This document shows positions 1 to 18,646 of a stretch of DNA of 21,391 bases, piece by piece. Origin of the DNA: a virus. Lineage: Duplodnaviria > Heunggongvirae > Uroviricota > Caudoviricetes. Location of the stretch: the IMG/VR virus record IMGVR_UViG_2778261068_000006, positions 1 through 21,391 of that record. One strand, written 5' to 3'. Below the pieces are notes generated by a model. That model ran no database searches. It worked only from the letters and a program-made list of their open reading frames with translations, and was not told where the DNA came from. Every line of letters begins with the position of its first letter. Position 1 is the first letter of the stretch. Both the position numbers and the translations under genes were made by a program.

Positions 1-1020
1 CTACTTACTGACCACAAGCGGCAAATCCAGTGTTGGGGTGATTTTGGTTTTACGATCGTAAATCAACACCTGATTTTCTGTTTTGTGTCCACTGAAAATT
101 TGTTTGTCGCGACTGCTGCCTTCGTAATCTGAAATCCCTTTGGCTTTTATGTCATGGAAGTTGCACCCAAACGGAACGCCGGCTTTTTGCTCGGCTGCAC
201 GTTTAGCCTGATTCCACCAGTTGTTCAGCGTCTTGGCTATTACCTTCCCGCCTTTGGTTGTGTTGATCACATACTCGCATGTGCCGGAAGATACATTTCG
301 GGCTAACTGGATCGCCGTACGTAATCGCGGAGACCATTCCTTGATTTGTTTAGTGCCGGTCTTGTTTTGCTCAATGTAAATCCCTTTATCCATAATATCC
401 TGCCATTTCAGCTCGAGTACATCACCGAGCCTTGCCGCACAAAGATAGGATATCTCCATTGCAATACGTAACTGTGGAATTGCTTCCGCATATATTGCAG
501 CATACTGTTCATCGGTGATGTAAACAGTACGGGCTTTAAGTGTGAATTTTCTGACTCCTTTGCATGGATTATTTTTCACATACCCACGCTCATATCCCCA
601 TCCGTATACACGGCTCAGACTTGCCAGTTCATGGTTTGCCTGGGTCTTGCTCTCAAGTCCTCGCTTATCCATGAAAATTCTTACCTGTTCAATTTTTACA
701 TTATCAGCAAGCACTTTTCCGAATACTGCCAACAATGCCCTTTGATGTTGCCGATAATCTTTTTGGGTTCGGGGTGCCAGTTCTGTAAATGCAGGGGAGT
801 CCATAAACATGTGCCATAATTTAGCTACTGTCATTATGTTGTGGAGTTTTGCTTTTTCCAGCTCATAATTTTGCCAGACTTTAGCTACGCTGGTTTCCCG
901 CACTCTTCCGAGCCCTATAGTTCTTGTGCTTCCTTCGGGTTTCCATACGTAACTGTAACCATTCGATCTAACACGCGGTGGTAATGCATTATCTTTTTTG
1001 TTTTTTCTTGGTCTTCCCAT
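1..1020 (-). CDS. int: Phage integrase, tyrosine recombinase (lambda Int-like); complete, stop codon at bases 1-3
   Basis: 339-aa ORF; N-terminus MGRPRKNKKDNALPPRVRSNGYSYVW resembles lambda Int N-terminus (MGRRRSHERRDLPPNLYIRNNGYY); C-terminal catalytic region contains H-x-x-K/R and LIYDRK tyrosine motif; position at prophage edge, overlapped by upstream xis-like ORF. Confidence 0.9.
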   Translation of the reverse strand: MGRPRKNKKDNALPPRVRSNGYSYVWKPEGSTRTIGLGRVRETSVAKVWQNYELEKAKLHNIMTVAKLWHMFMDSPAFTELAPRTQKDYRQHQRALLAVFGKVLADNVKIEQVRIFMDKRGLESKTQANHELASLSRVYGWGYERGYVKNNPCKGVRKFTLKARTVYITDEQYAAIYAEAIPQLRIAMEISYLCAARLGDVLELKWQDIMDKGIYIEQNKTGTKQIKEWSPRLRTAIQLARNVSSGTCEYVINTTKGGKVIAKTLNNWWNQAKRAAEQKAGVPFGCNFHDIKAKGISDYEGSSRDKQIFSGHKTENQVLIYDRKTKITPTLDLPLVVSK

Positions 1021-1306: not shown

Positions 1307-3787
1307 TTAAAAATCAACCGGATTCGGGATCAGTTTTTGCCAGATTGCTGAAACGTATTTTGCCTGGTGACGGGCGTCATCCAGTGCATTGTGGCGAACG
1401 CCTTCGAATGGAATAACGGTTCCAGCATCAAAGTCGATTGTTTTTCCCAGCTCAACGATTGTGCGTACATCGCGATCGTTGTGGTAGCGCCACGGGCAGG
1501 GGATGTCCAGACGTTCGTATGAGGTGCGCAAAATTGCGTTATCGAAAGTTGCACCATTACCCCATACCTGAACGAATTTTTCATCTGAGTATTCGTTGAT
1601 GAACTCCCGAAACCGCGAAAGGGCATCCTTCAGTTTTACCTGGTCTGTTAAAATGGCAGCTCTGGCTTCACTGGACTGCTTCAGCCACCATTTGATGGTT
1701 CCACCGTCAGGAGCAGCCCCTGTATTCATTGCGTCAGTCAGACTGATAACGATATAAAATACTGGCCCGATTTCCCCTGTTTGTGGGTCGAAGAAAACCG
1801 CACCAATAACCACGATGGGCGCATTGGTGTTGGTTCCCATTGTTTCAAGGTCGATCATCAGGTGGTACCACACTCTGCTGGTGGATGTGATAACGTGATG
1901 ACCGTTCACCACAATTAAGGGATCTGCCGTCTCACCAGTTTCATTATCGCTGGCGTGGTCCTGAGCGCTGCCAGCATTCTCCTTGTGTGGATGTTCAGCG
2001 CCTTCCATTTCCTCCGGGTCATTTTCCTGAACTTCAACCTGATTCTCTTCATCGAATGTTTCCTGGTATGTTGCGTCGCCCATCACCGCGCCACAATCAG
2101 GGCAGTTGCCGCCACCGCTCTGACCGCAGGCGGTGCAGACTTTTTCCGGTTCCTGTTGCGCTACTGGCTCAGGTTGTTTCGTTTCTGGCTCGTTTTGTAA
2201 CGCATTTTGGCTGTTTTGTTCCGCTTTCTGGTCGTTCTGTTCCGATTCTTGCTGGTTCTGGTTTACAGAATCGCGGGTTTCAATCCCCTTCACCCATTTC
2301 GGATCATTCGGGTCGCTAATCCCTGCAACAAATTCTCCGCGAGAGGCAGCAAGCAACTTATCGGCGTCAGGCTGGCTGATATTGGCTGCCTGCATAATTT
2401 TGTTTACTTCGTCAGCGGTAACTTTTACCGGCTCTGGTTGTGCGGTCGTGTCAGATGCACCAGTATTTTGTTGTGAACCTGAGTACGTGCCGTTTTTACG
2501 GGCAAAATATTCTTCTTTCGTGATTTCAGTAGCCCCTGCAGCCAGCGCCTTATTCAGACCAGAAAGTTTGTTTGCACGACCATATTTTTCGCCATCCTTA
2601 TCGGTGAAGAGGAAGTAGAACGGCCCCTCACGCTCTACAGATGGTTCAGTTTCCAGCGCGCTTTCATTTTTTTGGGTATCAGATACTTCAGTTTCCACTG
2701 CATCAGTTTGTGCTGCTGACGGCTGGAGAATATCAGCAGTGCTCTGGTCTGTTTCTTCATCCTCAAACACGCCCTTTGTCGCCAGGTATTCAGTGATGTA
2801 TTTGTTCAGCGCCACGGGATCTTTGTGAATGTCGATCGGACGCTCACGGACAAGGCCAAAAATAGTCTGACGGTCGTAGCGAACGGCATCAGGTTGTTTG
2901 CGCATTGATGCGGAAATACGCTTCCAGTCTTCGCGATCTTTGTCGATAACCTCATTTTTTGCCCAGCGATGGATGCTGCCGTCAATGTTTCCGGCATCAA
3001 TATCACCAGGCCAGAAAGCGTAGGCCAGTTCTTCATCCAGTGTTTTCCATGTCTGCTTGTATTCGCGACGAATGACAGCAGTTACGGAGTCAGTTTTTCC
3101 TGCAGAGTTTTCAGTGCCTTGCCGGTTGACTCTGGCGCGGGCAAGATCGACGACGGAATTATATGCGCCACCTTCTTTGCGCTCCTTTTCCATGCGTTTT
3201 TTACGTTCGAGAAAATACGCCTGAACGTCGGGCCATTTGGCTGTTGGTTTTAAATCACGTCTGGCATCGTTGATGTACTCAATCTGACGCTCTGGATACA
3301 TGGCGTTAATTTCTCTGGTCCGGATAATTGCTTCAGCGAGGTGTCCATCAAAAGTCGTCATCTCGTCATCGCCGAGAAGCCCGCTTGCATTGATGACCAT
3401 ATCCACGGTGATGTTTTCATGTGTACCGAACCTGACAAGGACAGCAGCCCGCTTGTCTTCAGATAACTGATTAAAGTTAACAGTTTCTGTATCCGGTTCA
3501 GGGTCGACCGGAACAAAGGAAGCCGACTCCTCATTCCAGCGGTTTTCCTGCATATATTCGGAATCCCAGGAATCGAGAGCAGGGCGGGCCATGCCGGGTT
3601 TATCCTCGCAGACAAGAAATTTATAAGCACAGTCCTGAGCTTCCGGGTATTGTTCCAGAAATAACCAGCTAAATTTGGCTCTTGCCCGGCGTTCGTCGCC
3701 TGCTTCAATGGCAGTGGCCACAGGTTTGGCGCCTTCTGCTGTTGCCTGTTCGTCCGGAATGGCGGCGCAAATAAAGACTTTACTCAT
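1307..3787 (-). CDS. Large prophage exonuclease-like protein: C-terminal DnaQ-like DEDDh 3'-5' exonuclease domain, internal zinc ribbon, acidic Q/E/N-rich linker (resembles prophage 'exodeoxyribonuclease VIII-like' proteins)
   Basis: 826-aa ORF with SD (gagg) upstream; C-terminus has exonuclease motifs MIDLETMG (Exo I, D-x-E), WGNGATFDNAIL (Exo II), HNALDDARHQAKY (Exo III, H-x4-D); CTACGQSGGGNCPDCG zinc-ribbon motif; located in the lambda exo/bet position. Confidence 0.6.
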   Translation of the reverse strand: MSKVFICAAIPDEQATAEGAKPVATAIEAGDERRARAKFSWLFLEQYPEAQDCAYKFLVCEDKPGMARPALDSWDSEYMQENRWNEESASFVPVDPEPDTETVNFNQLSEDKRAAVLVRFGTHENITVDMVINASGLLGDDEMTTFDGHLAEAIIRTREINAMYPERQIEYINDARRDLKPTAKWPDVQAYFLERKKRMEKERKEGGAYNSVVDLARARVNRQGTENSAGKTDSVTAVIRREYKQTWKTLDEELAYAFWPGDIDAGNIDGSIHRWAKNEVIDKDREDWKRISASMRKQPDAVRYDRQTIFGLVRERPIDIHKDPVALNKYITEYLATKGVFEDEETDQSTADILQPSAAQTDAVETEVSDTQKNESALETEPSVEREGPFYFLFTDKDGEKYGRANKLSGLNKALAAGATEITKEEYFARKNGTYSGSQQNTGASDTTAQPEPVKVTADEVNKIMQAANISQPDADKLLAASRGEFVAGISDPNDPKWVKGIETRDSVNQNQQESEQNDQKAEQNSQNALQNEPETKQPEPVAQQEPEKVCTACGQSGGGNCPDCGAVMGDATYQETFDEENQVEVQENDPEEMEGAEHPHKENAGSAQDHASDNETGETADPLIVVNGHHVITSTSRVWYHLMIDLETMGTNTNAPIVVIGAVFFDPQTGEIGPVFYIVISLTDAMNTGAAPDGGTIKWWLKQSSEARAAILTDQVKLKDALSRFREFINEYSDEKFVQVWGNGATFDNAILRTSYERLDIPCPWRYHNDRDVRTIVELGKTIDFDAGTVIPFEGVRHNALDDARHQAKYVSAIWQKLIPNPVDF

Positions 3788-6208: not shown

Positions 6209-6713
6209 ACAGGTTTGTGAGGCTCTGGATGCCTGGGTATGCCGACCAGGAATGACACAGGAGCAGGCGACGATATTAATCACGGAAGCATTCTGGGCTC
6301 TGAAAGAACGCCCGAACATCGATGTTCAACGCGTCACGTTTGATGATGGCGCGGTTGATCAACGGGCGCTGGGCGTCAACCGGGTGAAGATATTCGAACG
6401 CTGGAAAGCTATCGACACCAGGGATAAGCGGGAAAAATTCACGGCGCTGATTCCGGCAATTATGGAGGCTATCCGGATCAGCGATTTCAGGTTGTATTGT
6501 GAAATTACTGACGGAAAAAGCATTACGTACATGATCGCCGGGTTAAACAAAGAATATGGCGATGTGGTGGAGTCCGGTCTGCTTTTGGCAGATCCTGCTG
6601 TTGTGGAGCGTGAGACTGACGAGCTTATAGAAAAAGCTATTGCTTTCAAGCATGCGTATCGTCAGCAATATCAACAAAAAGCCGGATGGAATTATGAGTC
6701 TTCTTTTTGCTGA
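6192..6713 (+). CDS. ydaT: YdaT-like protein (CII-like regulator/toxin family of Rac/CP-933P immunity regions)
   Basis: 173-aa ORF immediately after the cro-like gene; motif REKFTALIPAIMEAI resembles YdaT REKIQKLIPAILAIL; synteny repressor-cro-ydaT. Confidence 0.55.
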   Translation: MKITPEQVCEALDAWVCRPGMTQEQATILITEAFWALKERPNIDVQRVTFDDGAVDQRALGVNRVKIFERWKAIDTRDKREKFTALIPAIMEAIRISDFRLYCEITDGKSITYMIAGLNKEYGDVVESGLLLADPAVVERETDELIEKAIAFKHAYRQQYQQKAGWNYESSFC

Positions 6714-7659
6714 ACGCCCACTGGTTATTAACACGCAGCTGGCGATGAAAATTGGCCTGAATGAAGCCATTGTACTGCAGCAGCTGCATTACTGGTTGAG
6801 AGATACTAATTCCGGCATGGAATGTAACGGGGTTCGCTGGATTTATAACACAACAGAACAATGGCTGGAACAGTTCCCGTTCTGGTCAGAGTCAACGTTA
6901 AAACGCGCATTTGCAAGTCTGAAAACGCTGGGGCTTTTGCGTTGCGAAAAGCTCAACAAATCAAAGCGTGACATGACTAATTTTTACACGATTAATTACG
7001 AGAGTGAGCTTTTAGATGGTGGCAAAGTGAGCGAATCCATCAGGTCAAAATGCGCCGCTCCATCAGGTCAAAATGACACGATGGAAGAGGTCAAAATGGC
7101 ACGCTCCATTGGTTCAAAACGACCCAATGTCATCGGGTCAAAATGGCCTGATGATCTTACAGAGAATACAACAGAGATTACTACAGAGAATAAAAACACT
7201 TCTCGTCCGGAAGCTTCGCAACCGGACTCGCAGACGGCTGAACAGGATTTTTTAACCCGACACCCTGACGCGGTTGTGTTCAGTGCGAAAAAACGCCAGT
7301 GGGGAAGTCAGGAAGATTTGGCGTGCGCACAGTGGATCTGGGGACGAATCGTGAGTCTTTACGAGCAGGCTGCCAGCGATGATGGCGAGATCACGCGACC
7401 GAAAGAACCAAACTGGACCGCATGGGCCAATGATGTGCGCACAATGCGGATGCTGGATGGCAGAACTCACAGACAAATTTGCGAAATGTTTGGTCGGGTA
7501 CAGCGGGATCCATTCTGGGTAAAAAACGTCATGAGCCCGTCAAAGCTTCGTGAAAAATGGGATGAGCTGGTTATTCGTCTGGGGCGTCCGCCTGTACAGC
7601 GTTGTGTGAATCATATTTCTGAACCGGATACCGAAATTCCCCCAGGGTTCAGGGGGTAA
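6694..7659 (+). CDS. Replication initiation protein: N-terminal phage replisome-organiser-like DNA-binding domain, C-terminal DnaT (primosomal protein I)-like domain
   Basis: Start ATG 6694 preferred (MSLLFAERPL; the track ORF begins at 6640); C-terminus ...VNHISEPDTEIPPGFRG matches the E. coli DnaT C-terminus (...NTVSEPDSQIPPGFRG); iteron array lies inside the gene. Confidence 0.7.
   Translation: MSLLFAERPLVINTQLAMKIGLNEAIVLQQLHYWLRDTNSGMECNGVRWIYNTTEQWLEQFPFWSESTLKRAFASLKTLGLLRCEKLNKSKRDMTNFYTINYESELLDGGKVSESIRSKCAAPSGQNDTMEEVKMARSIGSKRPNVIGSKWPDDLTENTTEITTENKNTSRPEASQPDSQTAEQDFLTRHPDAVVFSAKKRQWGSQEDLACAQWIWGRIVSLYEQAASDDGEITRPKEPNWTAWANDVRTMRMLDGRTHRQICEMFGRVQRDPFWVKNVMSPSKLREKWDELVIRLGRPPVQRCVNHISEPDTEIPPGFRG
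7036..7145. repeat. Iteron array, probable phage origin of replication: five copies of GGTCAAAATG-like repeat at about 23-bp spacing
   Basis: Copies at 7043-7052, 7066-7075, 7089-7098 (ggtcaaaatg), 7111-7121 (ggttcaaaacg), 7136-7145 (gggtcaaaatg); first two share tccatcaggtcaaaatg; followed by A-rich stretch 7150-7200; embedded in initiator gene as for lambda ori in O. Confidence 0.65.
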
Positions 7660-9387: not shown

Positions 9388-9580
9388 TTTTATGGATCAC
9401 CTTTCTGATTGATTTCATATTGGCGAGGTTACGGGAGTTAAGTAGAATTGCTGCGGGTGCTTGAGGCTATCTGTCTCAGGCATGAATGCCAAAAGGCAGA
9501 TAGAGAAAAGCCCCAGTTAACATTACGCGTCCTGCAAGACGCTTAACATTAATCTGAGGCTCAATCTATGAACGGCAAAT

Positions 9581-10654
9581 CTAGGTTAGCCTCTTACGTG
9601 CCGAAAGGCAAGGAGTTGTATGGGTCCACCACATATTGCAATTTTTGTTCTCTCTTAAAATATATTCCACGGGTGTCATTAGCGCGAGCGCCTTATGGGG
9701 CCTTTTGCTGTTATACAGCACCAGATATTCCGCCAGCTTCTGATTAAATAGCGCCAGATCTTCAAAGAGTAAAATCTCATTAAATTCAATAAACTGCTCT
9801 CTTAACGTCCGGTTAAAACGTTCACAGATAGCGTTCATTTTTGGCGTGTAGGGATAGGTCCAGAGGTGTTTGATAGCGGCTTCCTGCAGCGTTTTGTCGA
9901 AGTTTCCCAGGAACTCTTTTCCGTTATCTGTGATTATCTGGCTGATACCGACCGGGAACAACCGGGCTGCGCGGCTGAAGAAGTGATTGACGATATCACT
10001 GTTGAGTGACGGCACAGCCAGCGCCAGCGCGTAATTGCTGCATTCGTCGATCATGGTGATGACATAGCGACGCAGTTCGCCCATTCTGAGCTCAATGGCG
10101 TCCATCCCAATGAGCTCACCTGTCTTTACCGGGCGATAGTGCTTTGGCCTGCGGGGTTTGGCAGACCGCTTTTTGACAAGCAGTGCCTTCCCCCGCGATC
10201 CCAGACGCACAGGTATCATCCGCATTTTATCATGTGCGGCAGCGATCATTCTGCCGATGGTGGAAACACTCGGACAGGCCAGATAGCGCTGTTCGCACCA
10301 GGGCTTCAGGCGAACAAAAATCTGCTCTTTACCGAGGTTCGGCAGCTCTGTCCTGAGGCGTCGAATCTCTTTCAGCACATCGGGATGCCAGTGTTTTTTT
10401 CGTCGCACCAGAGGTGCCTTACTGTGCGGGATTAGCCCCTCAGGTCCTTCCTTGTTCAGTAACTGACGCCACCAGTAAAGCGTGCGGCAGGACACGCCAA
10501 AGGCTTCAGAAGCCGCAGAAATACCGTGTTTATCCCAGAAGTGCAGAGCCTTCATTCTCATTGTTGCTGTATCAGCCATCACTGAAAGCCTCAACGCATA
10601 ATCGGCCGTTTGGTAGTACTTAGGATAGCCAACCATCAGATGCTGCATTTGCAT
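9581..10654 (-). CDS. DDE transposase (HTH + rve integrase-core), IS481-family-like
   Basis: 357-aa ORF; HTH GISAASEAFGVSCRTLYWWRQ; catalytic triad candidates D (MIDECS), D (ITDNGKEF), E (NAICERFNRT); likely true start at internal Met (MADTATMRMK, about 10579). Confidence 0.8.
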   Translation of the reverse strand: MQMQHLMVGYPKYYQTADYALRLSVMADTATMRMKALHFWDKHGISAASEAFGVSCRTLYWWRQLLNKEGPEGLIPHSKAPLVRRKKHWHPDVLKEIRRLRTELPNLGKEQIFVRLKPWCEQRYLACPSVSTIGRMIAAAHDKMRMIPVRLGSRGKALLVKKRSAKPRRPKHYRPVKTGELIGMDAIELRMGELRRYVITMIDECSNYALALAVPSLNSDIVNHFFSRAARLFPVGISQIITDNGKEFLGNFDKTLQEAAIKHLWTYPYTPKMNAICERFNRTLREQFIEFNEILLFEDLALFNQKLAEYLVLYNSKRPHKALALMTPVEYILRENKNCNMWWTHTTPCLSARKRLT

Positions 10655-12819: not shown

Positions 12820-13185
12820 ATGACTGAACGCATAGAATTTGCTTTGCCTTACCCGCCGACGGTGAATACCTACTGGCGACGTCATGGCAATACGTATTTC
12901 ATCTCGGAGGCGGGAAAGCGTTATCGCCGTGATGTGGCGCTAATTGTTCGCCAGCAGCGGCTGAAATTAAACCTGTCCGGAAGGCTGGCGATAAAGATTA
13001 TTGCAGAGCCACCGGATAAGCGCCGTCGTGACCTGGACAATATCCTGAAAGCACCACTGGATGCGCTGACGCATGCCGGACTACTCATCGACGACGAGCA
13101 GTTTGATGAAATCAATATTGTGCGCGGTCAGCTCGTTCCTGGTGGGCGGCTGGGGATAAAAATCACAGAACTGGAGTGCGCATGA
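12820..13185 (+). CDS. rusA: RusA Holliday-junction resolvase
   Basis: 121-aa product; PYPPTVNTYWRRH, PDKRRRDLDNILKAPLDALT and GGRLGIKITELE align to E. coli RusA (PWPPSNNRYYRH..., [31 protein letters not shown]). Confidence 0.9.
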   Translation: MTERIEFALPYPPTVNTYWRRHGNTYFISEAGKRYRRDVALIVRQQRLKLNLSGRLAIKIIAEPPDKRRRDLDNILKAPLDALTHAGLLIDDEQFDEINIVRGQLVPGGRLGIKITELECA

Positions 13186-13871
13186 ATAACCAGTATTTAC
13201 AGTTTGTGCGTGAGCAGCTCATTGTCGCTACCGCTGATTTGAGTGGGGCAACAAAAGGTCAGCTTGAAGCCTGGCAAGAGAATGCCATGTTCGATACAGG
13301 GCGTTACAGGCGAAAAAAAATCCGGTACCGCGATGAAGTGACTGGAAAAATGATAACGCGGGATAATCCACCAATCCCGGGGAAGCAATCGCTGGCGAAG
13401 GGGACGTCAATTCCTCTGGTCAGTCCGGTTGAGTTTTCGACATCATCGTGGCGGCGGGCTGTTCTGTCTCTTGAAGAGCATCATAAAGCCTGGTTGTTGT
13501 GGTGTTACGGCGGAAACATTTGCTGGGAGCATCAGATCGCGATAACGCAGTGGGTGTGGAATGAATTTAAAACCCAGTCTGGTACCAGAAAAATTGCAGG
13601 AAAAACGCTGGAGCGTGTGAAGAAGTTGATATGGCTGGCGGCACAGGATGTCAGAGGATGGGTTACCGGGAGCGAGGTCTACCAGCGGCAGGAGCTTGCC
13701 AGACTGTGTGGAGTTAAGCCAGACAACTGGAGCCATAATTATGCGAACTACTGGCGTGAGATGTGCGACATTTTTAAGAATCTCGATACAGAATCCTTGA
13801 TTTCCACCGTGAAAAAGAGAACGCAACAAAAAGCGATCTTTTCACGACGAGATATTGCAAAAGTCAATTAA
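13176..13871 (+). CDS. Late-gene antiterminator, Q-like (QuuQ-like)
   Basis: 231-aa ORF between rusA and a tR'-type terminator; alternative start ATG 13182 gives ATGA coupling with rusA stop; call is largely positional. Confidence 0.55.
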   Translation: MRMNNQYLQFVREQLIVATADLSGATKGQLEAWQENAMFDTGRYRRKKIRYRDEVTGKMITRDNPPIPGKQSLAKGTSIPLVSPVEFSTSSWRRAVLSLEEHHKAWLLWCYGGNICWEHQIAITQWVWNEFKTQSGTRKIAGKTLERVKKLIWLAAQDVRGWVTGSEVYQRQELARLCGVKPDNWSHNYANYWREMCDIFKNLDTESLISTVKKRTQQKAIFSRRDIAKVN

Positions 13872-13967: not shown

Positions 13968-14864
13968 ATGCATGCGTTTAATTACTTTTTGGACCATTGC
14001 AACATGAAATCAGATAAGGCAGAAAACTTAGAGAATCCACTCGAACGTAATGATTTTACAATTGATGACTTCCACCATGTTCTTAGGGAGTTTGATAAAG
14101 CTGTTTGTGAAGCCAATGCGGTAAGTCAGGGAGTAGGTGTGCGAATGGCTGAGGCTTATCAAGGTTGGTCAACATATATATTTGCACGAATTTGCATTCA
14201 TGCTTCGATTATGATTTCTAATGTTCCTAAGTCCAGATGGGCTAAGCGAGATTACGATTTCTGGGATTTTGCTTCTATAGCATCTCATGTCAGGGCGATC
14301 CTTGAAGCTGAACTTCTGTTTATGTATTTGTCTGAAGCACCAGATTCAGAAGAGGCTTGGTCAGCAAAGCTAAATGTTATGCACATGAATGATTGTGTAA
14401 AAAGGATAGAATTATTCACGCAAAGTGATAATACAGAAGCATTAGGGTTTTATAATGAGCAACAGAGTATAATTGCGGAAAGACTCAATAAAAACCCTGC
14501 TTTTTTATCACTTGATAGTGGTACTAGGAAACGTTGCTTGTCAGGCAAGGCTTTAACAATTCCTAATAGAGACGATTTATTGATTAAACTAGGGAAAGAC
14601 CCAAAATCGTTTAAAGTGATGTTTGATTTTCTATCGCATTACACACACATACTCCCTATGTCATATTACAAAATGGAACCGAATGGGAGAGGGACTGGTT
14701 GTTTTAACAAGTTCGATTTTGGATATATAATAATGGGTATGTTGCTATGTACTGAATCTTTGATTAAGTGTACTGAACGGTTGGTGGATATTTTCCCTGA
14801 TGTTAAACGGTTAAGAAAAGGAACTAAATCAAAATTTACATTGGGCCCTAAACCAACAAAATAA
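13968..14864 (+). CDS. Hypothetical protein, AT-rich late-region cargo gene in the Q-tR'-holin slot; function unknown
   Basis: 298-aa ORF (alternative start ATG 14004, MKSDKAENL...); clearly lower GC than flanking phage genes; no signal peptide or TM segment evident; no family recognised. Confidence 0.7.
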   Translation: MHAFNYFLDHCNMKSDKAENLENPLERNDFTIDDFHHVLREFDKAVCEANAVSQGVGVRMAEAYQGWSTYIFARICIHASIMISNVPKSRWAKRDYDFWDFASIASHVRAILEAELLFMYLSEAPDSEEAWSAKLNVMHMNDCVKRIELFTQSDNTEALGFYNEQQSIIAERLNKNPAFLSLDSGTRKRCLSGKALTIPNRDDLLIKLGKDPKSFKVMFDFLSHYTHILPMSYYKMEPNGRGTGCFNKFDFGYIIMGMLLCTESLIKCTERLVDIFPDVKRLRKGTKSKFTLGPKPTK

Positions 14865-15030: not shown

Positions 15031-15417
15031 ATGTCCGATCCTATTTCCGGTACTGGGTTAGCCGGAGGAGTTCTAACGGGAGTTAGTATTTATGGCCTGT
15101 TTACAGGTACGGATTATGGTGTTGTATTTGGCGCATTTGCAGGAGCTGTTTTCTACATAGCGACAACTGCAGATCTGACGGCAACGCTCCGACTGGCATA
15201 TTTCATCGTGTCATATATCGCTGGGGTTTTGTGTTCTGGGTTAGTTGGTTCCAAACTGGCGAATTTGACCGGATACAGTGATAAACCTCTGGATGCTATT
15301 GGTGCCGTAATCGTCTCTGCTTTAGCCGTTAAAATCCTGACGTTTCTGAATAACCAGGGTATCGGTTCGCTGGTGGCGCTCATAACGCGCCGGGGAGGTT
15401 CAGGTGGTACAAAATGA
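15031..15417 (+). CDS. Holin (multi-TM small membrane protein)
   Basis: 128-aa ORF with SD gaggtgg; hydrophobic segments GVLTGVSIYGLF, FGAFAGAVFYIATT, AYFIVSYIAGVLCSGLVG, AIGAVIVSALAV; first gene of lysis cassette. Confidence 0.7.
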   Translation: MSDPISGTGLAGGVLTGVSIYGLFTGTDYGVVFGAFAGAVFYIATTADLTATLRLAYFIVSYIAGVLCSGLVGSKLANLTGYSDKPLDAIGAVIVSALAVKILTFLNNQGIGSLVALITRRGGSGGTK

Positions 15418-15685
15418 CCTATCGGCAACTTTTAATGCATTGCTTTGTGCTGGGGTAGTGTTAACCCTGATGTTTTACCGTCGCGGCGACTCGCGACATC
15501 GGCCGTGGATATCTCGTTTAGCGTGGCTGCTTACGGTCATGTACAGTGCCGTTCCGCTGGCGTATCTGTGCGGTATTTACCCGTACTCATCATGGGGCAC
15601 TATCGGGGCCAACATTATTTTCCTCTCTGTGCTGGTAGCCGTCAGAGGCAACGTGGCACGTCTGGTTGATCATCTGAGGCGCTAA
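15404..15685 (+). CDS. Small membrane protein of lysis cassette (holin/antiholin-like)
   Basis: 93-aa ORF, GTG start with SD ggggagg; overlaps holin stop by 14 nt and endolysin start by 1 nt; two to three predicted TM helices. Confidence 0.5.
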   Translation: MVQNDLSATFNALLCAGVVLTLMFYRRGDSRHRPWISRLAWLLTVMYSAVPLAYLCGIYPYSSWGTIGANIIFLSVLVAVRGNVARLVDHLRR

Positions 15686-16299
15686 TGAACCAATCACAAT
15701 TTCAGCAGGCGGCTGGTATCAGCGCCGGGCTTTCTGCGCGCTGGTTTCCGCACATTGATGCGGCATTGAAAGAGTTTGAAATCACAGCAGTTAACGATCA
15801 GGCCATGTTCATTGCACAAGTTGGGCACGAATCGGCCGGTTTTACCTCGCTGGTGGAGAGCTTTAACTATTCGGTAGAGGGTCTGAAGAAAACCTTTGGT
15901 AAACGCCTGACTCCGTATCAGTGTGAAATGTTGGGACGTATCGATGGTAGGCAGATAGCCCACCAGCAGCAAATAGCCAATTTGGTTTACGGTAACCGCC
16001 TGGGGAATAACAGCCAAGGGGATGGCTGGAAATATCGTGGTCGTGGCCTGCTTCAAATCACCGGCCGGGAGAACTACGCCAAATGCGGTACGGCGCTGAA
16101 GCTTGATCTAATCGGTACACCAGAGTTGCTGACGCAGGAGAAGCATGCTGCCCGTTCTGCTGCTTGGTTTTTCACGTTACGTGGTTGTCTCCTTTACTCG
16201 GGAGAGCTGGAGCGCGTCACGCAGATTATTAATGGCGGGCAGAACGGCATTAAAGACCGTCGTGAACGTTACGCCAAAGCTAAAGCCGCACTGGTGTGA
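15685..16299 (+). CDS. Endolysin, glycoside hydrolase family 19 (chitinase-like lysozyme)
   Basis: 204-aa product with GH19 motifs FIAQVGHESAGF and YRGRGLLQITGRENY. Confidence 0.8.
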   Translation: MNQSQFQQAAGISAGLSARWFPHIDAALKEFEITAVNDQAMFIAQVGHESAGFTSLVESFNYSVEGLKKTFGKRLTPYQCEMLGRIDGRQIAHQQQIANLVYGNRLGNNSQGDGWKYRGRGLLQITGRENYAKCGTALKLDLIGTPELLTQEKHAARSAAWFFTLRGCLLYSGELERVTQIINGGQNGIKDRRERYAKAKAALV

Positions 16300-16306
16300 G
16301 GTCACT

Positions 16307-16576
16307 ATGGGGCTTGAAATGATTATTGGCTTAGTTCTTGCTGCACTGGCAGCAATTGCTGGTGCTTTTGGTCTGGGTAAATCACGCGGTACCAGAATCG
16401 CTGAAACAAAAGCAGACCAGCAACGTACGGAAGAACGTGCAGCGGCTATTGAAGCGGTCGCCAAACGCAGGGTAGAGACAATAAAAGGGGCTAGGGATGT
16501 ACAGCAGACTGTTAACCATCTTTCTGATGACGATGTTGACCACGAGTTGCGCGAAAGCTATACCCGCAAAGCCTGA
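16307..16576 (+). CDS. Putative i-spanin (Rz-like)
   Basis: 89-aa product with N-terminal TM (MIIGLVLAALAAIAGAFGLG) then charged helical region; SD gaggt; follows endolysin. Confidence 0.5.
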   Translation: MGLEMIIGLVLAALAAIAGAFGLGKSRGTRIAETKADQQRTEERAAAIEAVAKRRVETIKGARDVQQTVNHLSDDDVDHELRESYTRKA

Positions 16577-16986: not shown

Positions 16987-17526
16987 TTAGAAACTGCGTG
17001 GAGCTGTGGAAAGAATGGATGCCAGTTCTTCCTTTGATAAATCCCAGCTTCGATTTACAGCGTCAATTTTCTTAAACTCATCAAGCATTGCGTTATAGAG
17101 ATGTTCTGTACGTGAATGAGTATTGGCAATGGGCTGTTTCTGTTCGGGGAAGCGATCAATTTTCTGATACGCCTCAATGATACTGAAGTAATCGCATTCA
17201 TTATTACCGTCGAAACCTGGGAGCTGAATTTCCCCATCATGTATTTTTAGATGATGGTCACGGACTAATTCTTTTTGCTCGTCATCACTAAGTTTCCTGA
17301 AAGCATTGGAAAGTCCGCGGTACATATTCAAGACAGCAGTAACAAAATCACGATCTTCTTTACTTGGTTCATCAACATCCAAATGTGAATATTCGGCCTT
17401 CATAACCCAATCATTACCAGATGACACAGCATATTTTACAAGCTGTGGATCAATATCAGTTTCGATACCTAGGTGGATGGCAATGTCACATAACAAAATG
17501 GTATTGATTTTATCCTTAATATCCAT
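16987..17526 (-). CDS. YfbU (UPF0304)-family protein, antisense moron between lysis and packaging genes
   Basis: 179-aa AT-rich ORF; EDRDFVTAVLNMYRGL, PGFDGNNECDYF and ANTHSRTEHLYNAML align to E. coli YfbU (EETCRTIIDIMEMYHAL, LGFDAATEARYL, GTHGFNAQTPMWEKYQRML); opposite orientation to all flanking late genes, own terminator. Confidence 0.6.
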   Translation of the reverse strand: MDIKDKINTILLCDIAIHLGIETDIDPQLVKYAVSSGNDWVMKAEYSHLDVDEPSKEDRDFVTAVLNMYRGLSNAFRKLSDDEQKELVRDHHLKIHDGEIQLPGFDGNNECDYFSIIEAYQKIDRFPEQKQPIANTHSRTEHLYNAMLDEFKKIDAVNRSWDLSKEELASILSTAPRSF

Positions 17527-17664: not shown

Positions 17665-18015
17665 ATGCCAGCACTAATCCCACGCGCCTGCCGTAAACGT
17701 GGATGTGCAGGTACAACCACAGACAGTTCTGGTTACTGCGATAAACATCGTGGCGAAGGATGGGCACAGCATCAACGCGGACTAAGTCGCCACCAGCGTG
17801 GCTATGGCACGAAATGGGATGCCATACGTGCGCGCATACTGAAGCGTGATAATCATCTGTGTCAGAACTGCCTGCGCAATGGGAGAGCCGTTGAAGCCAG
17901 AACTGTGGACCACATCATTCCGAAAGCTCATGGTGGCACGGATGCAGACAGTAACCTGCAGAGTCTGTGCTGGCCCTGCCATAAAGCAAAAACAGCGCGC
18001 GAACGCATCAATTGA
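17665..18015 (+). CDS. HNH endonuclease (terminase-associated)
   Basis: 116-aa product with Cys-rich N-terminus and HNH core DHIIPKAHGGTDADSNLQSLCWPCHKAK; immediately upstream of terS/terL as in HK97-like phages. Confidence 0.85.
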   Translation: MPALIPRACRKRGCAGTTTDSSGYCDKHRGEGWAQHQRGLSRHQRGYGTKWDAIRARILKRDNHLCQNCLRNGRAVEARTVDHIIPKAHGGTDADSNLQSLCWPCHKAKTARERIN

Positions 18016-18163
18016 TAACAGTTCCCATCTGTAGGGGAGGGGCGGGTCAAATCTCTGCAACTCTGGCTGCTCAGTACCGCCGCCTGACCCATCCTCACAT
18101 CGCCGCAGGTTCGAAAACTTTTTTTTGGGAATGTGATTAAACGATTGATAGGTAAAACCGATT
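18016..18163. other. Candidate cos/packaging-site region between HNH and terS
   Basis: Noncoding 148 bp containing gggcgggtca ... ccgccgcctgaccc inverted symmetry and palindromic ggttcgaaaac followed by T8; call is positional by analogy with HK97. Confidence 0.35.
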
Positions 18164-18646
18164 ATGTCAGGACCCCCGAAAACCCCGCCACGCCTGCATT
18201 TGATACGAGGCAACCCCTCAAAGCGCCCCGTTAAAGACCCAAAAAAAATCGCTAAAAAGGATGAAAAAGGTCTCCCTAAAATTCCGCAACATTTAGGGGC
18301 ACAGGGGAAGTACTGGTTCAGGCGAATGGCGGAAGAACTGAATGCGGAAGGGATCATTTCTCAGCTTGATGCGCGTGCACTCGAGTTACTGGTGGAAGCC
18401 TACACCGAATACCGGCATCACTGCGAAACACTCGATGTTGAGGGGTATACCTACCGCACGGAAACGCAGAGCGGTGATGTACTGATTAAGGCGCACCCCG
18501 CGGCGGCAATGAAAGCGGATGCCTGGAAGCGGATCCGGGCAATGCTTGCAGAGTTTGGTATGTCACCGGCAAGCCGGGCTAAAGTAAATATCGCCGGACC
18601 GGATGATGTTGATCCGCTGGCGGAGCTTTTAAAAGCGAGAGACTGA
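18164..18646 (+). CDS. Terminase small subunit (P27 family)
   Basis: 160-aa ORF immediately upstream of and ATGA-coupled to the terminase large subunit; basic N-terminus. Confidence 0.8.
   Translation: MSGPPKTPPRLHLIRGNPSKRPVKDPKKIAKKDEKGLPKIPQHLGAQGKYWFRRMAEELNAEGIISQLDARALELLVEAYTEYRHHCETLDVEGYTYRTETQSGDVLIKAHPAAAMKADAWKRIRAMLAEFGMSPASRAKVNIAGPDDVDPLAELLKARD

Follow-up and report, generated by a model that had tools for sequence, protein, structure and literature searches.

Virion DNA of phage HK97 ends in 10-nt 3' overhangs (PMC9410871), and its small terminase subunit (TerS) binds positions +15 to +29 (CTAACCCGATTTTTT), with Arg128 contacting the C:G pair at 21 and an A-tract that is essential for bending (PMC11331095). 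TerS stalls the packaging motor at cos and the HNH protein gp74 stimulates cleavage (PMC11331095, PMC9410871). For Shigella phage SfI, run-off sequencing of virion DNA left 10 nt, TGCCCGCCCC, unread from both sides (PMC3636060), and the SfI record ends with the same 10 nt; we infer that the run-off gap reflects recessed 5' ends, i.e. 3' overhangs as in HK97. The DNA analysed here (21,391 nucleotides of a caudoviral IMG/VR record, hereafter the window) carries a noncoding gap between an HNH endonuclease gene and terS, in which an initial annotation, made from the letters alone, had suspected the genome ends. Homology to mapped ends places cos in this gap with high confidence and, with hardly less, our comparison points to the cos of a lambdoid, E. 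coli-type prophage with an HK97-type, HNH-assisted packaging module.

The HNH-terS junction in its prophage context

Pfam and PHROG matches together with gene order identify the window as the left and central part of a lambdoid prophage (Table 1). The interval between Q antiterminator and holin, the usual position of cargo or virulence genes in lambdoid phages (stx in phiP27-like phages, for example), is taken here by a 298-aa ORF. Further right, a YfbU-domain gene on the opposite strand separates the lysis cassette from the HNH gene and looks like a moron-type insertion. In the early region the sok match points to a hok/sok-type toxin-antitoxin locus, and the IS transposase ORF, which overlaps the 3' end of this match, might affect inducibility of the prophage. 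Of 5426 complete E. coli genomes, 1053 (about 19%) contain the module running from HNH through the gap to terS and terL in some form, and 928 have it at a coverage of at least 80%. It is 93-98% identical to that of the isolated phages phi467, the vB_Eco series and PhiR49_2; for the gap alone, identity to isolated phages (phi467 and the vB_Eco series among them) is 94-98%.

Table 1. Features of the window, with positions relative to the predicted top-strand nick where these apply
Feature	Position	Strand	Basis or remark
Integrase	1-1020	-	
RecE-like exonuclease	1307-3787	-	
O-like replication protein	6640-7659		
sok antitoxin RNA	9455-9622	+	Rfam RF01794, gathering-level match, 105.8 bits
IS transposase, 357-aa ORF	9581-10654	-	PHROG transposase families, phrog_157, E 1e-76
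Q antiterminator	13176-13871		
298-aa ORF	13968-14864	+	no PHROG match at E<=1e-5
Holin	15031-15417		
Endolysin	15685-16299		Glyco_hydro_19 match
Rz-like spanin	16145-16576		
YfbU-domain gene	16987-17526	-	Pfam PF03887, E 4.7e-12
HNH endonuclease gene, 116 aa	17665-18015	+	Pfam PF01844, E 1.9e-16
Noncoding HNH-terS gap, 148 nt	18016-18163		
Conserved G-rich box GGGGAGGGGCGGGTCAAATC	18034-18053	+	conserved core of cos starts here
Spacer, 24 nt	18054-18077	+	variable sequence, fixed length, ends (G/T)AC
Predicted cohesive end, 10-nt 3' overhang CGCCGCCTGA	18078-18087	+	homology
TerS-type-specific block CACATCGCCGCAGGTTCGAAAAC plus T8	18096-18126	+	+9 to +39; proposed TerS site (cosB-like)
Invariant core CCGCAGGTT of this block	18103-18111		+16 to +24
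Match (TATCAATCGTTTA) to IHF core consensus WATCAANNNNTTR	18138-18150	-	+51 to +63
terS, P27-family small terminase, 160 aa	18164-18646	+	Pfam Terminase_4 PF05119, E 2.6e-25
terL, HK97-type large terminase, 585 aa	18646-20403	+	Pfam TerL_ATPase and TerL_nuclease
Portal gene	from about 20597, off window end		named by position after terL as in relatives, without family scan

The initial annotation had the boundaries of the gap right (HNH stop codon TGA at 18013-18015, terS ATG at 18164), and the Pfam matches bear out what it had called the two flanking genes. The general rule it relied on, that in HK97-like phages the HNH gene is the last late gene, with cos between it and terS, is borne out by HK97 itself: no other gene separates the HNH gene (39054-39413) from the right end, and terS begins at base 50. 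The HNH protein of the window is 88% identical to phiP27 L34, 73% to its SfI and SfV homologs and 75% to that of mEp235, it matches an HNH endonuclease structure (PDB 5h0m) over its full length (E 1.3e-14) and shares 36% identity over 70 aa with HK97 gp74. By homology it is the counterpart of gp74, the predicted accessory nuclease for cos cleavage.

TerL of the window has the same two Pfam domains as HK97 gp2 (PF03354 and PF20441), and is 29% identical to the latter over 455 aa (E 8e-41), 37% to SfI TerL and 86% to mEp235 TerL. Gene order (HNH - cos - terS - terL) is also that of HK97, whereas the TerS proteins are unrelated in sequence: homologs of the window's terS carry the name 'phage terminase small subunit P27 family' and SfI TerS belongs to the same Pfam family, while HK97 gp1 is without a Pfam hit and was not hit by the window's TerS. 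Identities to the window's TerS are 74% (mEp235), 73% (Fraca) and 64% (Pm34) as opposed to 20-24% for phiP27, SfI and SfV.

The predicted cut and its four anchors

To compare the gap with known ends, the two ends of deposited linear records were joined and the junctions aligned with it. In HK97, where the record opens with GTTTGAATT and closes with ...GACCGCCGCCAAA, the junction shows the box GGGGGGGGATCAAATC, 24 nt of spacer, the overhang CGCCGCCAAA and, to the right, GTTTGAATTTAACGCTAACCCGATTTTTTTAG. In SfI, box GGGGCGGGTCAAATC and 24 nt precede the 10 nt left unread by run-off sequencing, which are followed by GTCGTTTTTTTATACCCGCGAAAAATG; in the Stx2e phage phiP27, the same box and spacing precede CGCCCGCCCC, annotated as 'cos-site' in the homologous gap. 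The record of Proteus phage Pm34, deposited as the opposite strand, gives ...CCTAGGAC on the left, overhang CGCCCCCTTA and CCTCTTTTCACATCACCGCAGG on the right, and the window itself reads GGGGCGGGTCAAATC, 24 nt, CGCCGCCTGA and CCCATCCTCACATCGCCGCAGG. All four anchors align in one register in which the overhang begins exactly 24 nt after the G-rich box, and the sequence at the cut is (G/T)ACCGCC across 33 aligned relatives, ACCGCCGCC being common to window and HK97. Since the base numbering in the HK97 TerS-DNA paper (T16, C:G 21, T24-T29) fits base 1 of the HK97 record, this record starts at the top-strand nick. The Pm34 record, on the other hand, has its first base at the bottom-strand nick, and its last bases are the complement of the overhang; it thus adds the other nick to what HK97 and SfI provide, so that both nicks are anchored by records.

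The suggestion that genome ends map to the gap therefore has support from homology, in a single register, to HNH-terS gaps of phages with known ends. Gene neighbourhood, TerL homology and cut-site homology to mapped ends all argue for an HK97-type, HNH-assisted 3'-cos packaging site, and the nicks are predicted between 18077 and 18078 on the bottom strand and between 18087 and 18088 on the top strand. For these exact positions our confidence is good, albeit lower than for the presence of cos in the gap. Other record ends were tried as evidence and turned out to be uninformative: the mEp235 record starts at the terS ATG, that of ST64B is circular, F1055 ends inside terS and Fraca has a terminal duplication from assembly.

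It seems unlikely to us that the gap holds a cos site which is nicked at other positions or leaves an overhang of another length. Such a scenario might draw on the SfV record, which has its boundary between ...cctgacgtct and tccggactgcccgcccc, some 17 nt further left, as well as on the overhangs themselves: these vary among relatives (CGCCGCCTGA, CGCCCGCCCC, CGCCCCCTTA), so that the bonds cut could shift by a base, and some IMG/VR clusters are off by one nucleotide in register. Both nick positions are, however, agreed on by HK97, SfI (for which the evidence is experimental), phiP27 and Pm34, and the junctions of natural chimeras (see below) coincide with the predicted top-strand nick. As for SfV, whose cos mechanism is called 'postulated' in the SfI paper (PMC3636060), the point of linearisation of its record (NC_003444.1) lies 17 nt left of the SfI and HK97 record ends, yet the sequence contains TGCCCGCCCC, and this record boundary is probably not the physical end.

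Even less likely, to our minds, is a cos relic, i.e. an intact sequence in a defective prophage that never makes ends at this site. The transposase gene in the early region would be in keeping with a prophage that may not be inducible, and the tail genes and most of the head region fall outside the window. Against this, HNH, TerS and TerL are full-length in comparison with functional phages (116/116, 160 vs 157 and 585 vs 578 aa, respectively), the gap is nearly identical to that of isolated phages (see above) and a relic would bear on activity rather than on the identity of the site. Least probable is an ordinary intergenic spacer, made up of a ribosome-binding site and late-transcript leader, in a phage that packages by the headful (pac) mechanism from a site inside terS: an RBS-like AGG does lie about 10 nt before the terS ATG and many P27-family terS genes come without a mapped cos. 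However, TerL is HK97-type and clusters with HK97 and SfI, both of them cos phages, which speaks against a headful mechanism; an HNH gene is part of the module; sites homologous to the gap are mapped ends; noncoding blocks show conservation equal to that of their coding flanks across phages of Escherichia, Klebsiella, Proteus and Morganella; and no promoter-like or terminator-like site (including an intrinsic terminator at the T8 run) was found in the gap.

Symmetry features and other signals in the gap

As features of the gap, the initial annotation had named inverted symmetry (gggcgggtca at 18040-18049, gcctgaccc at 18082-18090), a palindrome centred on ttcgaa (18110-18115) and a run of eight T residues (18119-18126), all of which are present. 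The inverted symmetry, however, comes down to a single perfect 6-nt pair, GGGTCA/TGACCC (18044-18049 and 18085-18090), and this is at chance level: 221 nt contain 11 inverted pairs of six nt, this one included, and the gap has three such pairs where 2.6 are expected (P=0.45; 2000 first-order Markov simulations). Palindromes number one against an expectation of 2.0 from 2000 simulations of the same kind, the longest inverted repeat in the gap is 6 nt compared to a simulated mean of 7.4, and single-strand DNA folding of the gap (z=+0.38) is no better than that of shuffles. A hairpin or cruciform signal, considered as a candidate, was rejected on these grounds. TTCGAA is thus the lone palindrome, as expected by chance, and is dropped in relatives, reading TTAGAA or TTACAA in mEp235, Pm34, Fraca and the Klebsiella and Morganella relatives. 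Hence, neither the inverted repeat nor TTCGAA marks the site. The T8 run is the sole one of these features that is both somewhat unusual (P~0.02 for the gap; the 21.4 kb contain four A/T runs of at least 8 nt) and conserved, with a run of T6-T9 at its position in 33 of 33 distinct aligned relatives.

A search of the gap for Rfam families returned none, the sok RNA being the only Rfam match in the window. A protein encoded across the gap was likewise rejected, the candidates of at least 20 aa, all of them short or antisense, being a 191-aa antisense ORF (17782-18357) that has no Pfam hit and other ORFs of 33-62 aa. The gap does contain the only match to the IHF core consensus in the 21.4-kb window, where 1.17 are expected (about 0.008 per 148 nt); it is kept in close relatives and absent from mEp235 and Pm34, and may, tentatively, be regarded as a possible IHF bending site.

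In lambda, cos is composed of cosQ, cosN and cosB, has a 12-nt 5' overhang and an IHF site, I1. The layout we propose here resembles it in having three parts (an upstream element, a nicking site and a downstream TerS region) and one IHF-consensus match downstream. It differs in that the predicted overhang is of opposite polarity and other length, in its TerL_ATPase/TerL_nuclease type of TerL, in its HNH accessory nuclease and in lacking R-site repeats. A lambda-type cos was rejected, as Pfam gives TerL_ATPase and TerL_nuclease only and direct repeats longer than 7 nt are absent from the gap.

The G-rich box, the TerS-type-specific block and the joint between them

Among the 33 distinct relatives in our alignment (phages of Escherichia, Klebsiella, Proteus and Morganella plus IMG/VR contigs) the G-rich box is near-invariant, and in HK97 its counterpart, with the same TCAAATC end, lies at equal distance from the genome end. 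The window, HK97, SfI, phiP27 and Pm34 all have exactly 24 nt between box and overhang, and in most of 41 divergent IMG/VR clusters CG(C/G)C(G/C) (CGGCG/CGCCG) follows the box at 24 +/-1 nt and is itself followed by terS. The exact 15-mer GGGGCGGGTCAAATC is present once in the window; at least 119 IMG/VR contigs contain it too, most of them ahead of a terS-like start. Many of these contigs are GC-rich and clearly non-enterobacterial, and the few hits in coding sequence look like chance. Escherichia phage PhiR49_2 (PV340570.1) has a 733-bp insertion exactly between the equivalents of 18033 and 18034; it adjoins the box on its left, which indicates that the conserved cos core begins there. This insertion (L141 668-1402), placed between the HNH stop region and the box, carries a minus-strand gene for 171 aa, and the upstream HNH gene of PhiR49_2 is present but without annotation on its strand.

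To the right of the cut, conservation follows a different rule. The block at 18096-18126 reads CACATCGCCGCAGGTT(C/A)GAAAAC plus a T-run across relatives, includes the unconserved TTCGAA as well as the conserved T8 run, and is confined to phages that have a TerS at 64-74% identity to the window's (mEp235, Fraca, Pm34 and relatives). In phiP27, SfI and SfV, with TerS proteins 20-24% identical, it is replaced by other sequence. At about 15-40 nt right of the cut, where HK97 TerS binds, window and HK97 alike have a GC core plus T-run, although the block itself differs in sequence between the two. Because it co-varies with TerS type, combines a GC core with T8 and overlaps the position of the HK97 site, TerS binding is the most likely reading of the block, and by analogy we regard 18096-18126 as a putative TerS binding site.

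On this basis, packaging may be envisaged as follows. A ring of P27-family TerS would bind the GC core and A/T-tract of the right-hand block on concatemeric DNA, just right of the cut, and TerL, helped by the HNH protein, would nick the two strands 10 bp apart at the predicted positions, leaving 3'-protruding CGCCGCCTGA ends. Packaging would then proceed rightwards from terS and halt at the next cos. Last to be packaged would be the G-rich box, which lies 24 nt to the left of the first nick and probably positions the nuclease or signals termination, like cosQ of lambda.

The two sides of the cut have separate relationships. Left of it, sequence tracks HNH type (phiP27 88%, SfI/SfV 73%, mEp235 75%), and right of it, TerS type; megablast homology between window and phiP27 stops at 18084. 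SfI, SfV and phiP27 share with the window the TerS Pfam family, a closely related HNH protein, an identical G-rich box, the 24-nt spacing and the cut register, but are unrelated to it right of the cut (TTTTTTTATACCCGCGAAAAA type) and differ at 4-5 of the 10 overhang positions. With the mEp235/Pm34/Fraca group (Hendrixvirinae), which is close in TerS and TerL, the whole cos core from box to T-run can be aligned; these phages read TTAGAA for TTCGAA and have, beyond the T-run, a GGGGTCCCC palindrome which the window lacks. The gene just upstream of cos is not HNH in Pm34 (a small hypothetical gene plus holin) or Fraca (a 216-aa 'phage protein'), so HNH adjacency is not universal in this cos family. 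In HK97, the HNH stop is 319 nt from the top-strand nick, compared to 72 nt in the window. Three IMG/VR contigs (L047, L071, L115) are natural chimeras, 95-96% phiP27-like over the stretch between HNH and the nick and 94-96% window-like beyond it as far as terS, and they change parent inside the last 3 nt of the predicted overhang. Cos thus acts as a boundary between mosaic modules.

As a cos site, the one described here is of an ordinary and already well-understood class, as the feature annotated in phiP27 illustrates, and for the window alone its assignment is routine annotation. Its position lets the prophage genome be oriented and linearised correctly, and predicts which DNA (plasmids, satellites) could be mobilised by cos-dependent packaging. 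A modest interest remains in the fixed-spacing box and in the recombination joint at the nick. The HK97 papers cited here map only the downstream TerS site (PMC11331095, PMC9410871), and the box is common to phages with unrelated TerS proteins; it may act in the manner of cosQ or as the place where the nuclease docks. We tentatively entertain the possibility, doubtful as it may be, that GGGG(A/G)GGGGCGGGTCAAATC, exactly 24 nt upstream of the first nick, is a distinct and very widespread cis element in HNH-assisted packaging from 3' cos sites, signalling termination as cosQ does or docking HNH/TerL, and that the halves of a two-module cos recombine at the nick. In the searchable literature the exact string of the box led to unrelated plant papers only, sequences inside figures not being searchable, and neither the fixed-spacing box nor the recombination joint at the nick was found described there, which is weak evidence of novelty. 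For those parts of HK97-type cos recognition that await mapping, the fixed spacing between box and nick, the TerS-type-specific right half and recombination joints at the nick offer themselves as targets.

Escherichia phage CharmingMan (PP925830.1, L137; HNH stop at 428, terS start at 587) departs from all relatives in the orientation of a 27-bp segment around the predicted cut: it has GCGCCTTAGGCGGCGGTCCTTTGGCGC, the reverse complement of GCGCCAAAGGACCGCCGCCTAAGGCGC, between inverted repeats of 5 bp, and both the G-rich box and the TerS-side block are in normal orientation. The inversion could be real or an assembly artefact at cos ends and, if real, would amount to a natural test of what positions the nicks.
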